Positions 1-64,000 of a DNA stretch of 64,000 bases are shown here, one piece after another. Source of the stretch: an uncultured Candidatus Rokubacteria bacterium (GTDB lineage Bacteria; Methylomirabilota; Methylomirabilia; Rokubacteriales; DASRDR01); contig CAWDVE010000010.1 of NCBI GenBank assembly GCA_963805625.1, forward strand, positions 608,001 to 672,000, given 5' to 3'. Positions within the stretch are counted from its first letter, which is position 1, and every line of letters starts with the position of its first letter. The position numbers were made by a program, and so were the translations under genes. The notes under the pieces were generated by a model that made no database searches, was not told the origin of the DNA, and saw only the letters and a program-made list of their open reading frames with translations.

Positions 1-1178
1 CTCGTGAAGTAGAGGGCGTACCGCGGCACCACGACCCGAGCCAAGCGAGGCGGTCGGAGCTGCACGGCGAGCGGTATCTCGATCCCCGCCCGTCCATCGA
101 GAGCGACCGTGATCAGGACATCGTCGCCAGTCGCGGCCGGTCCGACCTCGAGCTGCTCGAACGCGAGCGGGCGGAAGGTCGCGTGGACCGGGCGTCGAGC
201 CGCGACCTCGGCCCATGCTCGGAAAAGCGTCACGCTCCGCGGAGCCGGCTCGAGCTCGAGCGATGCCCCGGGTGGAACCGGGCGCGCGGCCTCGCCCCCC
301 GCCGCGTAGGCGAGGCTGACGGGCGCGCCGGATGGCGCCGCGCCGCGAAATGCGCGCAGCTCGACGCGGAGCAGCCGGACCCCGGGCGCACCGGTCACCG
401 CGTAGCGCACCTCCCGCCGAAGCTCCGTCCGGCTGTCGTCGTAGCGCGCGGTGGCGGTCGTGGCCGCCATCGGCACCCCGCCTCCCAGGACGCGTACCAG
501 TGCTTCGACGGCGGCGCTGGCGGCCGCGAGATCCTCCCGTACGGGGCGGAGCGACACGTGGGCCATGGCGGCGGGATCGGCCGCCCGCAGGACGGAAGCC
601 GCCTCGCTCCCGTCTCTGGCAGTCCCGAGCCGCCGGTCCAGCTCGACCAGGTAGGCCGAAACGGCCGCGCGCCGAGCCTCGAGGTCGCGGAATTCCGCGG
701 CGGCCAGGGTGCGGGCCAGCCGCCGCGTAGCCGCCTCCACGGCCGCCGCCTCGCGCGGCGCGTCGCCGCGCAGCGGGTTGAGCCGCCGCGAGAGCGCGAT
801 CATGGCTCCGGCGCGCTGCTCGAGCTCCGATCCGGTCAGGCGGAGCTCGTCCCGCGTGAGCTCGGCGAGCCGGGCTCGGGCGGCCAGCAGGTGTGGATCT
901 CCCGTGACGGTCGAGAACGTCAGGCGCGGCTCACCCCATACCGGGACCCAGCCCCTCTCGTACGAGACGGGGATCGGGGGCGCGAACCACCCGAGCCGGC
1001 CACCCCAGACCAGCAGAGCCGCGCTCGCCAGGAGCACGAGTACCGCGGCCATGCGCAGCCGGCGCCGCAGGAGCAGCACGGCCACGAGCGCCACCACCCA
1101 GAGCACCCCAAGGGCCAGATCCAGGGCGCTCGCGGTCAGCACGAGGCCCAGGAGGGCCGCGACGGCGACCGTCCTCAC
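1..1178 (-). CDS. hypothetical membrane-anchored protein, 3' end runs off the window edge
   Basis: GTG at 1178 overlaps the upstream gene's stop (GTGA). The frame reads VRTVAVAALLGLVLTASALDLALGVLWVVALVAVLLL... with hydrophobic N-terminal helices and stays open to the window start. It is absent from the ORF track because it has no stop inside the window. Confidence 0.7.
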   Translation of the reverse strand, partial: MRTVAVAALLGLVLTASALDLALGVLWVVALVAVLLLRRRLRMAAVLVLLASAALLVWGGRLGWFAPPIPVSYERGWVPVWGEPRLTFSTVTGDPHLLAARARLAELTRDELRLTGSELEQRAGAMIALSRRLNPLRGDAPREAAAVEAATRRLARTLAAAEFRDLEARRAAVSAYLVELDRRLGTARDGSEAASVLRAADPAAMAHVSLRPVREDLAAASAAVEALVRVLGGGVPMAATTATARYDDSRTELRREVRYAVTGAPGVRLLRVELRAFRGAAPSGAPVSLAYAAGGEAARPVPPGASLELEPAPRSVTLFRAWAEVAARRPVHATFRPLAFEQLEVGPAATGDDVLITVALDGRAGIEIPLAVQLRPPRLARVVVPRYALYFT

Positions 1179-60871: not shown

Positions 60872-61057
60872 CTAGCGCTTGCCGCCTGCCCGTCCGGCAG
60901 GCTGCCACTGCGGGGGCACGATGAGAAGAGTGGCGTCAGCATCCACTGTCACGGCGATCGCAAAGACACCGTACGACGGCCGTGCATACACGGCGCTGAA
61001 CGCCTCGATCCGGGCGAGCCGAAGCTCTCTCTGTCGGAACCGGCTCAGGAGTCGCAT
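60872..61057 (-). CDS. possible small ORF at the head of the sugar operon
   Basis: 61 aa; GAAGGGAG upstream; lies downstream of an AT-rich promoter-like patch. Confidence 0.3.
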
Positions 61058-61152
61058 GCCGCTCGCGCTCCCTTCACGAGCACCCTTGCTGCCTCTTCAG
61101 CATATACATGAGCATATTCAATCTGTTACACATACTCACCTGACATGGAACT

Positions 61153-61824
61153 TCAGACCGATTCGCCGTGCGGGACAAGCGGCTCCCAAATCACCACCCG
61201 GATGGGCGTGGGCTCGAGCCCCGCACAGGGATTGTTGACCTGAGGGCAGTTCGAGATCAGCGCGAGCGCGTCCATCTCGGCCCGAAGGTCGACGAAGTCG
61301 CCCGCCTTCGAGAGGCCGTCGACGAACACAGTGTCCGTCAACTTCCCGTCCGGGCCCACCGGCACGTTGGAGAAGAAGTTGAGGTTGGCCACGATGTCGC
61401 GCCGCCCCAGGCCGTATTGGCCGAGCAGCCGGAGGAAGGCTTCGCGGCAGCCGGGAACGTCCTTCACCCCGTACATCATGAAGTTGCTGGGAGCGCTACA
61501 GCAGCCGCCGATGGTGTCGTGCCGGCCACAGGTGTCCTCCACGATCGTGAACATGGGCCGCGCCACATCGGAGTACAGCACGTGCCCGGTGGTGAGCAGG
61601 ATGCTCCGGGCCTTCTTCATGGTGTTGGCTGCGTGATACCGCTCCTCGGGCTGGGTGGCGTGATAGCAGAGAAAGTCCACCCCCTGCTTGCCAGCCTGGT
61701 CCACGATCCGGAGGATCTGGCCTCGCCTCACGACATCAGCCCACCCCTCGCCCGGCGGAACCACGTCGTCGCGGACCACGTGTCCGGGAGGTGAGGAGGT
61801 CGTCACTCCTGATTCACCGATCAT
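61153..61824 (-). CDS. urea carboxylase-associated DUF1989 protein (carboxyguanidine deiminase subunit-like)
   Basis: GQILRIVD..GKQGVD, DTCGRHDTIGGCC, LNFFSNVPV, SNCPQVNNPC. Confidence 0.9.
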   Translation of the reverse strand: MIGESGVTTSSPPGHVVRDDVVPPGEGWADVVRRGQILRIVDQAGKQGVDFLCYHATQPEERYHAANTMKKARSILLTTGHVLYSDVARPMFTIVEDTCGRHDTIGGCCSAPSNFMMYGVKDVPGCREAFLRLLGQYGLGRRDIVANLNFFSNVPVGPDGKLTDTVFVDGLSKAGDFVDLRAEMDALALISNCPQVNNPCAGLEPTPIRVVIWEPLVPHGESV

Positions 61825-61926
61825 CAGGCTTCTCGCTCTCTGGCTGGCTAGAGGACATTCGCTCGGAATCTCGACACAGCCAGGACCTTAGCACGGGTTG
61901 GAGTCTTCGGACTCGCGGCCGAGCGC

Positions 61927-61955
61927 TTGACTGCTCCCGGCGCCGCCCGTACCGT
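61927..61955 (+). promoter_or_regulatory. sigma70 promoter of the Cys-leader/cysteine synthase transcript
   Basis: TTGACT (61927-61932)-17 nt-TACCGT (61950-61955); the leader ATG is 6 nt downstream. Confidence 0.7.
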
Positions 61956-61961
61956 GGGATC

Positions 61962-62033
61962 ATGAGATGCTCTCGGCCGGATCGCTGTCGGTGTCGAGCG
62001 CGTGGGCCCGTGGGGGCTCGGGGCGCCTGGTAG
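61962..62033 (+). CDS. leaderless Cys-containing leader peptide MRCSRPDRCRCRARGPVGARGAW
   Basis: Three Cys codons (TGC, TGT, TGT) within the first 11 codons; lies between the promoter and the terminator upstream of cysteine synthase. Confidence 0.7.
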   Translation: MRCSRPDRCRCRARGPVGARGAW

Positions 62034-62059
62034 AGACGCCGCCGCGGACCGCACCACTT

Positions 62060-62095
62060 GGCCCACCGCCGCCGGGCGGTGGGCCTTTTTGCTTT
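62060..62095 (+). terminator. intrinsic terminator (attenuator) upstream of cysteine synthase
   Basis: GGCCCACCGCC-GCCG-GGCGGTGGGCC perfect 11-bp stem followed by TTTTTGCTTT. Confidence 0.85.
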
Positions 62096-62115
62096 CGGCA
62101 GATGGGGAGGCTCCA

Positions 62116-63066
62116 GTGACGTCAGGCAGGCGGTCGGCGACGCCCGCCGACCGCTTCGAGCGCGCCCTCGAGCACCCGCTGCTCCAGCGCATCGGGCGGA
62201 CGCCGCTGACGGAGCTGCGCCACCTTCCGCCACCCGGCCTCTCGTTGTACGCGAAGCTGGAGGCCCAGAATCCCGGCGGCAGCGTCAAGGATCGCGCGGC
62301 CCGTGCAATCGTGCTCGACGCCTTCGAGCGCGGCCTCCTGCCGCATCGACGGCTCCTCGACTCCACGAGTGGCAATACAGGCATCGCCTACGCCATGCTG
62401 GGCGCGGCGCTCGGCTTCGGGGTGACGCTCTGCGTGCCCGTGTCGGCCGGCCCGGAGCGCAAGCGTATCCTTCACGCGTACGGGGCGGAGGTCATCGATA
62501 CCGACGCCGGTGAAGGCTCGGACGGCGCGCGTCTCCGGGCGCGAGAGCTGGCCGACCTCCATCCGAACCGCTTCCACTACGTCGACCAGTACGCCAATCC
62601 TGCGAACCCCAGGGCCCACGAGACGGGCACGGGGCCGGAGATCCTCGGGCAGCTCGGCGAGCGCCCGCTGGACCTCTTCGTGGCCGGGCTCGGCACAAGC
62701 GGCACCTTCGTGGGCGTCGCCCGATTCCTACGCCGGGCGAGCGCCGCCACGACGTGCGTGGCCGTCGAGCCCGATGACGGCCTACACGGCATCGAAGGTC
62801 TGAAGCACATGGCAACGGCCGTCGTCCCGCCCATCTTCGAGCCGGCACTCGCCGGACGGCGCGAGCAGGTCACGACGGAGGCCGCGTATGAGATGACTCG
62901 GCGCCTGGCCCGCGAGGAGGGCCTGCTAGCCGGCGTGTCGTCCGGAGCCGCGCTGGTGGCGGCGCTCCGCGTCGCCCGCGAGATGGCGGCGCGCACGGTC
63001 GTGGTCGTCTTTCCGGACGGCGGCGAGCGCTATCTCTCGGAGCGCTTCTGGGAAGAGGCTCGCTGA
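62116..63066 (+). CDS. cysM: PLP-dependent cysteine synthase (CysM-like)
   Basis: IGRTPL, NPGGSVKDR, TSGNTG, QYANPAN, GLGTSGT, GVSSGA, FPDGGERYLS; RBS GGGGAGG. Confidence 0.9.
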   Translation: MTSGRRSATPADRFERALEHPLLQRIGRTPLTELRHLPPPGLSLYAKLEAQNPGGSVKDRAARAIVLDAFERGLLPHRRLLDSTSGNTGIAYAMLGAALGFGVTLCVPVSAGPERKRILHAYGAEVIDTDAGEGSDGARLRARELADLHPNRFHYVDQYANPANPRAHETGTGPEILGQLGERPLDLFVAGLGTSGTFVGVARFLRRASAATTCVAVEPDDGLHGIEGLKHMATAVVPPIFEPALAGRREQVTTEAAYEMTRRLAREEGLLAGVSSGAALVAALRVAREMAARTVVVVFPDGGERYLSERFWEEAR

Positions 63067-63251
63067 GCGGGAGGCTGCCGGCCTCCGCTCCGACCCCCCG
63101 GACCGAGACGAGCCGCTGGTCTCACCCCCCGTCGTATCCCGACGCGGGACGGAGGCTTGGACACGTTCGCGACGGGTCTCGTGTGCGCTCGCTGTGGCGC
63201 GCGTCGCGTGCTCCGACGCCGTCCGGCGCGTCGCGGCCCGCTAGATCCTAC

Positions 63252-64000
63252 TCACTGGGCTTTCGTGTACTTTCGCGCGTAGGCGCGCACGCAGGCCGCT
63301 CGCAGCGCGACCTCGTCCAGGTCACGGCCCCGGAAACGCTCGACCGACATGCGGCCCAGGTCCGGCTGGCTGGATCCATCCACGATCAGGTCGGCGAGGG
63401 CCCGGCCGACCGAGGCGGAGATGGACAGTCCTCCCACGTTGCAGGCCGAGGCGATGTAGAAGCCAGCCAGGCTCTCTACCGGGCCCACGATGTGCTCGCC
63501 GTCCGGTGAGATGGTGGGGAGTCCGCCGCGATGCTCGCGAAGCTTCGCGCCTCGCAGCGCGGGGAAATGGGCGGCCACCTCGCCGGCGAGGCCCCAGAGC
63601 ACACCGACGTCGAGCGGCATGTCCCGCACCTGGAAGCCCGCCGGCTCCTTCCCCATGTCGATCTGGAGCGGATGGTCCTCGTAGCCCCCGAGCATCAGCC
63701 CGCCCTGCTCCGGCCGGGTGTACACGCTTGGCTCGTGGATGCGGACGATCGGGTGATGAGGCTCGACCCCCGCGATCGGCTCGGTGATGAAGAGCTGGTG
63801 ACGCGTCGGGACCATGGGAACGCGGATGCCCACCTCGTCCGCCAGGAGCCCCGACCACGCGCCCGCGGCGTCGACGACCACCGGGCTCTCGATCACGCCG
63901 CCCGAGGTTCGGACTCCACGGATCCGCCCGGCCTCATGGAGGAACCCGGTCACCGCCGTCCCCGGCGCGAGGGTCACGCCCATCTCCCCGGCGGCGGCCG
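63252..64000 (-). CDS. FAD-dependent oxidoreductase (sarcosine oxidase beta/dimethylglycine dehydrogenase-like), 5' end outside the window
   Basis: VVDAAGAWS, HQLFITE, GGYE, ISPDG.HIVG. Confidence 0.88.
   Translation of the reverse strand, partial: AAAGEMGVTLAPGTAVTGFLHEAGRIRGVRTSGGVIESPVVVDAAGAWSGLLADEVGIRVPMVPTRHQLFITEPIAGVEPHHPIVRIHEPSVYTRPEQGGLMLGGYEDHPLQIDMGKEPAGFQVRDMPLDVGVLWGLAGEVAAHFPALRGAKLREHRGGLPTISPDGEHIVGPVESLAGFYIASACNVGGLSISASVGRALADLIVDGSSQPDLGRMSVERFRGRDLDEVALRAACVRAYARKYTKAQ

Follow-up and report, generated by a model that had tools for sequence, protein, structure and literature searches.

A probable cysteine-sensing leader-peptide attenuator and its CysM-like synthase gene on a putatively acquired cassette in a Rokubacteria genome

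Leader-peptide attenuators are classically known from amino-acid operons, viz. trpL of Escherichia coli, hisL of Salmonella, and the thr, leu, ilv and pheA leaders. Cysteine is, to our knowledge, one of the few amino acids for which there is no textbook transcription attenuator. The classical attenuators are summarised in the sections of Seliverstov et al. (2005; PMC1262725) drawn upon here, and the same sections report candidate Cys leader peptides for actinobacterial cys/cbs operons, which are without terminators and for which Rho dependence is suggested. In mycobacteria, polycysteine leaderless small open reading frames (sORFs; Ms5788A and others) act by freeing a sequestered ribosome-binding site, according to the portion of Canestrari et al. 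(2020; bioRxiv 10.1101/834739) used in this work, and the uORFC-8-2 motif, found before cysS in Rhodobacterales, is predicted in the corresponding part of Brewer et al. (2021; PMC8632094) to be a ribosome-mediated attenuator with Cys codons and an intrinsic terminator. Of these Cys systems, the one that has been proven, in mycobacteria, controls translation, and that of Rhodobacterales cysS is a prediction only. The present work concerns a leader element found in a stretch of 64,000 nucleotides from an uncultured Candidatus Rokubacteria genome (contig CAWDVE010000010.1, positions 608,001 to 672,000), which is referred to as the window. Based on comparisons of its sequence with those of related loci, we consider it likely that this element is a cysteine-sensing leader-peptide transcription attenuator, which is present together with its CysM-like gene on a 1,358-bp cassette, probably a horizontal acquisition. 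The features of the element and the cassette, in the coordinates of the window, are as follows.

61876-63233, no strand assigned: inserted cassette of 1,358 bp with the promoter, the leader, the CysM-like gene and a 3' flank (blastn against a genome of the same genus)
61927-61932, plus strand: -35 box TTGACT (read from the sequence)
61950-61955, plus strand: -10 box TACCGT, of the TANNNT type (homologues have TATTTT, TAATCT, TACTTT and similar hexamers at the same position)
61962-62033, plus strand: leader sORF MRCSRPDRCRCRARGPVGARGAW of 23 codons followed by TAG (62031-62033), with a predicted leaderless start (frame kept in 17 of 17 leaders)
61986-61994, plus strand: Cys cluster TGT-CGG-TGT, i.e. 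Cys9, Arg10 and Cys11 (aligns with the TGYTGTTGT cluster of the homologues)
61998-62013, plus strand: region 2, GCGCGTGGGCCCGTGG, the 5' strand of the predicted antiterminator, with the core GGGCC (sequence and folding)
62015-62050, plus strand: predicted hairpin, the apical loop of which contains the stop codon; it forms the upper part of the antiterminator (folding)
62054-62069, plus strand: region 3, CCACTTGGCCCACCGC, the 3' strand of the antiterminator, overlapping the 5' arm of the terminator (sequence and folding)
62060-62095, plus strand: intrinsic terminator with an 11-bp stem (62060-62085) and the loop GCCG, followed by TTTTTGCTTT (terminator scan; -26.8 kcal/mol)
62104-62110, plus strand: Shine-Dalgarno sequence GGGGAGG of the CysM-like gene, 5 nt 5' of the GTG at 62116 (read from the sequence)
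62116-63066, plus strand: CysM-like cysteine synthase gene, 316 amino acids, GTG start (NCBIfam and structure match)

In the window the two promoter boxes are separated by a spacer of 17 nt, and TACCGT is followed by 6 nt (GGGATC) and then by the ATG at 61962. The three Cys codons of the sORF are Cys3 (TGC, 61968-61970), Cys9 (TGT, 61986-61988) and Cys11 (TGT, 61992-61994). Region 2 is complementary to region 3 as read from the sequence, 10 of the 11 base pairs in the terminator stem are G-C pairs, and a gap of about 20 nt separates the terminator from the Shine-Dalgarno sequence of the CysM-like gene. A preliminary description of this locus had listed the two boxes, the 23-codon frame with Cys at codons 3, 9 and 11, the hairpin, the ribosome-binding site and the complementary segments, and all of these were found at the positions given there. 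The contigs of runs X1-X4 are identical in sequence to this stretch and show neither variants nor any starts or ends. An in-frame extension of the sORF to 80 amino acids, starting from a GTG at 61791, was rejected; it extends across the insertion boundary (61876) and into the beginning of the divergent upstream gene.

Taken alone, the sequence of the window provides modest evidence against a chance occurrence, and we estimate that three TGY triplets would be seen in 23 codons of random sequence of 70% G+C a few percent of the time. In 2,585 long open reading frames (ORFs) of this genome that are high in third-position GC, Cys makes up 0.85% of the codons, versus 3 of 23 in the sORF, and TGT accounts for 13.8% of the Cys codons, in agreement with the earlier remark that this codon is disfavoured. 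More informative are two scans of the whole genome. When both strands of the 7.27-Mb genome were searched for ORFs of 8-45 codons matching the pattern TTGACN-16..18-TANNNT-6..7-RTG, 8 such ORFs were found, and the sORF in the window is the only one of them with at least two Cys codons. A looser scan of the genome, in which a -10 box and a leaderless sORF were required to precede a terminator and the sORF to contain residue runs or Cys pairs, likewise returned this locus only, and no second copy of the leader was found in the genome with either of two covariance models (R1, built from 5 leaders, and R2, built from 16). In the genome there are 110 cases of a TANNNT hexamer that ends 6 nt 5' of the first start codon of a long ORF, versus 18-90 at the other 24 offsets tested (90 at offset 9, 67 at 8, 55 at 7 and at most 51 elsewhere), and due to this enrichment leaderless initiation in the recipient genome appears plausible.

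Support for the proposed function comes from homologous leaders, of which 17, inclusive of the window, were analysed in detail and 16 were folded. The window served as a training sequence for both R1 and R2 (where it scores 86.9 and 73.6 bits, respectively), and because of this its homology to the other leaders rests on alignments: it can be aligned from the promoter to the T-tract with the leaders of L031, L032, L117 and L118, the last two of which are the only ones among five metagenome contigs with enough upstream sequence, and both of them carry the leader. In 16 of the 17 leaders TTGAC followed by A, T or G is present 16-18 nt 5' of a TANNNT hexamer, and in 13 of the 17 the distance from the end of the -10 box to the start codon is 6-7 nt; for L212, L223 and L225 this distance is 6 nt provided that translation begins at an in-frame GTG. 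No Shine-Dalgarno sequence was found before the sORF in any of the 17 leaders. The sORFs are 21-29 codons long and contain 2-5 Cys each, with a cluster at codons 9-15, and 37 of their 58 Cys codons are TGT despite a G+C content of 60-73% for the leaders. The number of TGY (TGT or TGC) triplets is 58 in the frame of the sORF, versus 20 in the +1 frame and 4 in the +2 frame. Compensatory changes are seen at 4 of 10 pairs in the terminator stem, and 12 of the leaders, including the one in the window, are located directly 5' of a CysM-like orthologue with 65-72% identity. Of the rest, one precedes a peroxiredoxin-like gene (L206), three are followed by another conserved hairpin and one lies at the end of its contig. 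The conservation of this architecture in all 16 homologous leaders argues that it is not a product of chance, and the retention of the promoter spacing, the frame, the Cys cluster and the terminator, together with the frame specificity of the TGY triplets, supports the attenuator model of the preliminary description. The alignment of related loci recommended there thus gave conserved Cys codons and a covarying terminator stem, but the covariation of the antiterminator, considered below, did not reach significance.

These results also bear on two alternatives. If the terminator were controlled by a riboswitch, a protein or a small RNA, and the ORF were incidental, then a terminator in the 5' leader would also be expected, as this is the layout of riboswitches, and the leader in the window is indeed G+C-rich and strongly folded, although its fold is no stronger than those of shuffled sequences (z = -1.19). 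However, a scan of positions 61000-63000 with Rfam at E <= 10 revealed no family covering the leader, and the sole overlap was a match of 26 nt to the terminator on the opposite strand. Further, the start codon is fixed at its spacing from the -10 box, the frame is kept through lengths of 21, 22, 23 and 26 codons, and the Cys triplets are specific to this frame, which makes such control very unlikely. The second alternative, that the sORF encodes a functional Cys-rich micropeptide (e.g. metal- or redox-active) co-expressed with the synthase, would be consistent with the conservation of a short frame rich in Cys and Arg and with the peroxiredoxin-like gene following the leader of L206. However, it is the nucleotide motifs that are conserved, the peptide being highly variable except for Cys, and in every case a terminator lies between the sORF and the downstream gene, so that we hold this alternative to be extremely unlikely.

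The ability of the leaders to form two alternative structures was examined by folding transcripts cut just 5' of the 3' arm of the terminator, in which 29 nt were masked as the ribosome. If the A site of the ribosome is placed at the first Cys of the cluster, then pairing between the GGCCC core of the 5' arm and the GGGCC of region 2 has a probability (P) of at least 0.75 in 14 of the 16 leaders, and in the window regions 2 and 3 pair with P = 1.00. Moving the A site to the last cluster Cys abolishes most of this pairing across the leaders, whereas the window, where this residue is Cys11, keeps a value of 0.70; the decrease from 1.00 bears out the caveat in the preliminary description that a ribosome stalled at Cys11 may partly cover the antiterminator strand. 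With the A site at the stop codon, P is 0.14 or lower in 10 of the 16 leaders. The antiterminator hairpin of the window (61998-62069) has a predicted energy of -41.6 kcal/mol, versus -26.8 kcal/mol for the terminator. A hairpin with the stop codon within or beside its apical loop is predicted for each of the 16 folded leaders, with stem sequences that differ from leader to leader. A consensus fold of five leaders (RNAalifold) also pairs codons 3-7 with the GGGCC segment, which is a possible protector helix and is weak in the window. The GGGCC core is present in differing codon phases across the leaders and encodes Gly-Pro, Gly-Ser (via G-U pairs), Gly-Arg or Gly-Ala, and because both the phase and the encoded residues differ, its conservation points to a constraint on the RNA rather than on the peptide. 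Column-wise counting of pairs for the antiterminator was abandoned, as the core shifts by one column between rows of the alignment. The predicted antiterminator is thus supported by the conserved GGGCC/GGCCC core and by thermodynamics, not by significant covariation.

Based on these observations, the element may function in the following manner. Transcription would start at the A of the ATG at 61962, where a 70S ribosome would load in a leaderless manner. If charged tRNA-Cys is scarce, the ribosome would stall at Cys9 or Cys11, and possibly also at Cys3, leaving 61998-62013 free to pair with 62054-62069 as the latter emerges from the polymerase. The resulting long antiterminator, with the stop-codon hairpin on its top, would sequester the 5' arm of the terminator, and RNA polymerase would read through into the synthase gene. 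However, if cysteine is ample, then the ribosome would translate region 2 as far as the UAG and would either open up the antiterminator or cover it at the time when the terminator is being transcribed, such that the hairpin at 62060-62085 would form and transcription would stop.

The sORF could instead act via its nascent peptide or its stop codon (an arrest peptide or a release-factor effect), or via Rho or translational coupling, in which case the signal would be something other than stalling for want of charged tRNA-Cys. Of the 17 leaders, 15 end their sORF with UAG, whereas TAG makes up 29% of the stops in the long ORFs of this genome, the tail of the peptide is semi-conserved (Gly-Pro-Val/Ala ... 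Gly-Ala-Gly), and the mycobacterial Cys sORF controls translation, not termination, in the portion of the report used here (bioRxiv 10.1101/834739). However, the differing codon phases and residues of the GGGCC in this tail fit an RNA constraint, the canonical intrinsic terminator with its T-tract is conserved and covarying, and Cys is the sole type of residue that is kept in every leader. This manner of action is therefore judged quite unlikely in comparison with sensing of charged tRNA-Cys.

A number of observations weigh against the attenuator interpretation, or against its application to the window. The promoter of the preliminary description has the boxes and the spacing stated for it, with which the homologues agree, but it is not listed by a consensus sigma-70 scan, where TACCGT matches TATAAT at 3 of 6 positions and falls below the rule of the tool; due to this, the promoter call in the window rests on the homologues. 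The window also lacks two adjacent Cys codons, unlike most of the homologues, which have CC or CCC. The statement that the antiterminator and the terminator are mutually exclusive is in line with the pairing predicted in the masked folds of 14 leaders, but the remaining two (L117 and L211) are without a predicted pairing of regions 2 and 3, and the antiterminator duplexes formed by cognate strands (-21.9 kcal/mol) are not significantly more stable than those formed by non-cognate strands (-20.9 kcal/mol; permutation p = 0.089). In addition, the antiterminator of the window is predicted with P = 1.00 in naked, ribosome-free RNA and also with the ribosome at the stop codon, where the mask covers the upper hairpin only. 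Because it forms with the ribosome at the stop codon, termination under cysteine-replete conditions must rest on steric or kinetic arguments. Upstream of L115, the closest homologue of the protein (77% identity), no terminator was found in the 61 nt that are present on the contig. Among 80 distant homologues of the synthase, Cys-dense upstream sORFs were seen in 4, versus none when the reverse strand of the same 80 was scanned and 1.1 on average in shuffled sequences, and under a looser rule in 12, versus a shuffle mean of 7.6, which is not significant. There was likewise no general signal of strict terminators upstream of these genes (5 of 80 in the forward orientation versus 3 of 80 in the reverse complement).

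Two of the distant CysM-like homologues are preceded by unrelated Cys-dense sORFs, viz. MMMSDTKCCCFACLCCFS in an Acidobacteriota metagenome-assembled genome (MAG; L045, 269-325), and one containing ...HCGCCCKC... followed by a terminator of 15 bp in a Bacteroidetes MAG (L093, 1177-1299). Their presence suggests independent origins of the same device.

The enzyme encoded at 62116-63066 scores below the NCBIfam cut-offs for both cysKM (298.8 bits; cut-off 344) and cysM (286 bits; cut-off 394), whereas its best solved relative is cysteine synthase B of E. coli (2bhs, E = 1.6e-60), and because of this it is referred to as CysM-like. It is 67-70% identical to proteins of L031-L033, which are MAGs titled Acidobacteria, Vicinamibacteria and Acidithiobacillales, and 68-77% identical to those of the five metagenome contigs. 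For the contigs L115 and L116 the protein identity is 77% and 71%, respectively. No orthologue of the enzyme was found in 40 relatives of the window's genome, where the best non-self match shows 53% identity and those from the same genus at most 47%. In a protein tree constructed with FastTree from 89 rows (L207 and L208 being dropped for short matches), the enzyme is part of a clade of 14 rows with 99% support, 10 of which are leader-linked, and the homologues from relatives of the window's genome fall in other clades.

A blastn comparison with L277, from the same-genus genome G013, aligned window positions 61125-61875 with 1461-2207 and 63234-64000 with 2216-2979. Because the two flanks align in this nearest genome at positions 8 nt apart, the segment 61876-63233 is interpreted as an insertion. 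The flanking soxB-like and UAAP2 genes are adjacent and without the cassette in four genomes of the genus (G013, G014, G009 and G004), and based on this absence from the same site the whole cassette was probably acquired horizontally, from a donor resembling the soil Acidobacteria. In 150 other genomes of the window's own class, 8 matches were obtained at E <= 1e-4, all of which represent a different leader before dapA/asd, and three inspected matches in a sample of its phylum, which is made up of the families already present in the class sample and has no genomes in common with the samples from the Acidobacteria side, are also other leaders. Thus, no member of the family beyond the window was found in the 150 genomes sampled from its own phylum (with L320 and L321 not inspected separately), and on these comparisons the element is not native to the lineage of its host.

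In contrast, the class of L032's genome (Vicinamibacteria-type) gave matches in 51 of 151 genomes with R1 at E <= 0.01 and in 46 of 151 with R2 at E <= 1e-4. A leaderless Cys sORF with a terminator was verified by inspection in 19 of these 151 genomes; many weak matches to R1 and R2 in this class are false and correspond to the 3' end of a conserved gene with a terminator, or to 5S rRNA. In an even sample of 151 genomes from the whole phylum of L032's genome, a strong score was seen in L032's genome only.

The finding that the cassette is an insertion raises the possibility that the family is a cysteine attenuator in the donors, but that the copy in the window is a decaying or mis-wired import with constitutive termination or read-through in its new host. 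The leader of the window is the lowest-scoring one of those linked to cysM (86.9 bits with R1, versus 104-126 for the other four leaders used to build this model), its -10 box is TACCGT rather than a TATTTT-like hexamer, its Cys cluster is interrupted (C-R-C) and its antiterminator is predicted in every masked state. However, nothing is disrupted in the frame or its stop codon, in the 11-bp terminator with its T-tract, or in the ribosome-binding site, the three Cys codons are retained, with two of them being the rare TGT, and a signal for leaderless starts with this 6-nt spacing is also seen in the host genome. Based on these characteristics, decay of the imported copy is considered unlikely, and a functional cysteine-sensing attenuator remains the preferred interpretation. 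A broader proposal, which as a whole we regard as doubtful, is that the synthase gene, together with its promoter, its leaderless Cys leader and the hairpin switch, constitutes a self-contained mobile sensor-plus-enzyme cassette, which would need only ribosomes and tRNA-Cys and no regulator of the host, and could work on arrival when transferred between phyla; in such a cassette the near-invariant UAG of the antiterminator loop, together with the Gly-Pro...Gly-Ala-Gly tail, could provide a second, release-factor-dependent timing step.

Several other candidate leaders were met in the course of the model searches. One member of the Cys-leader family, in L206 (1501-2400), encodes MKRRDTRLGCCRPEGSACAGAG and is followed by a terminator and then by the peroxiredoxin-like gene rather than by a synthase. 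L212, L217, L223, L300, L301, L302 and L316 share a conserved stretch of about 80 nt after the Cys leader and terminator, which comprises GGGGAGGTGCGCC... and, in those inspected (L212, L217 and L223), a second G+C-rich hairpin; no CysM-like gene was found within the next 1.4 kb at any of these seven loci, and no other gene was recognised there. The L031 contig has a second match to R1 (1000-1118, minus strand, 40.9 bits), which is back-to-back with its Cys leader and consists of the sORF MMGMCPGPRDPRAPMTG and a terminator; it precedes a threonine-synthase-like gene with a Cys-rich motif at the N-terminus, and a similar gene is preceded in L305 and L310 by VGPMAMRIIVRRGPARPLG. These three may represent a leader for Met or sulfur metabolism. 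A conserved leader, AAGAGCCGGCTGGGGTCCC...GGGACGCCCAGCG..., ending in a terminator of the GAGGCCCGCGACC type, is shared by L234-L241, L317 and L318, which are from the window's own class or phylum; the downstream products begin like dihydrodipicolinate synthase and aspartate-semialdehyde dehydrogenase, and it could be a leader or a riboswitch of the lysine pathway. Weak matches in L253, L255, L245, L258, L304 and L319 contain candidate leader peptides, each with a terminator, among which are MNYWWYGG (Trp-Trp), VAFVLYFWYWQG (aromatic), MRNRCSLFFTFS (Phe), VNLTAIIARRYY and VTIKRFRQRVVVVVVREDCAD. The last of these has six Val codons and a TATAGT 6 nt 5' of its GTG and comes from a genome of the window's own genus (G003); this Val-run leader was not found in the genome of the window by blastn.

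The neighbouring gene upstream of the cassette, which is divergent (61153-61824, minus strand), encodes the urea-amidolyase-associated protein UAAP2. A sub-threshold match to the guanidine-II (mini-ykkC) family of Rfam is present at 61761-61812 on the minus strand (18 bits versus a gathering score of 32; E = 1.1), with two hairpins having ACGAC loops in the first codons of the UAAP2 ORF as drawn. Genes associated with urea carboxylase are typical targets of guanidine riboswitches. Due to the location of this match inside the ORF, the true start of UAAP2 may be further downstream than drawn.

In comparison with the trp and his attenuators, the leader in the window is similar in that a short leader with codons for the amino acid of the pathway is followed by an intrinsic terminator before the structural gene, and in that an alternative hairpin is predicted to compete for the 5' arm of the terminator, where the position of the ribosome would decide between the two. 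It differs from them in that cysteine would be the amino acid sensed, in being translated probably from the first base of the mRNA without a Shine-Dalgarno sequence, and further in the predicted placement of the stop codon within the loop at the top of the antiterminator; nor is a clear 1:2 protector pairing predicted in the window. With the mycobacterial Cys sORFs, as described in the portion of that report used here, it shares a short ORF with Cys codons, in the window with a predicted leaderless start, before genes of cysteine metabolism, and the ribosome as the proposed sensor. However, the mycobacterial case represents translational control without a terminator, whereas the window has a canonical terminator before the ribosome-binding site, and the criterion of at least two consecutive Cys codons in the mycobacterial search would not select the window (codons 3, 9 and 11), although most of its homologues have CC or CCC. 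The host of the window is also not an actinobacterium, as WhiB was not found in it and Omp85 is present. The short ORFs before the actinobacterial cys/cbs genes, which have Cys codons in runs, as far as covered by the sections cited above, are alike in their position and differ from the window family in its conserved canonical terminator. The conserved Cys codons followed by an intrinsic terminator are shared with uORFC-8-2, which, in the part of its description used here, differs in its target (cysS), its lineage and the tandem Cys at positions 14-15 inside the first stem, with no leaderless start described there; in the window a CysM-like gene is downstream and Cys is at positions 3, 9 and 11, and there is no evidence of sequence homology between the two.

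The preliminary description was aware of no account of a terminator-based version of this kind in the lineage. This is retained in so far as a full-text literature search found no acidobacterial or cysM-linked version of the leader, but it requires qualification, as a Cys leader with a terminator was already predicted for Rhodobacterales cysS (in the part of PMC8632094 used here) and the element appears to be an import to this lineage. The principle is already known, but the sequence comparisons support well a new, putatively leaderless and terminator-based Cys family, which is absent from Rfam and from the literature searched. As a putative factor-independent switch that probably travels with its gene by horizontal transfer, it bears on how regulation may survive gene transfer, and it could also provide a compact cysteine-responsive part for engineering. 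In relation to the systems described earlier, this family, which is conserved and easily testable, joins a predicted leaderless start to the classical terminator/antiterminator switch in poorly studied soil phyla.

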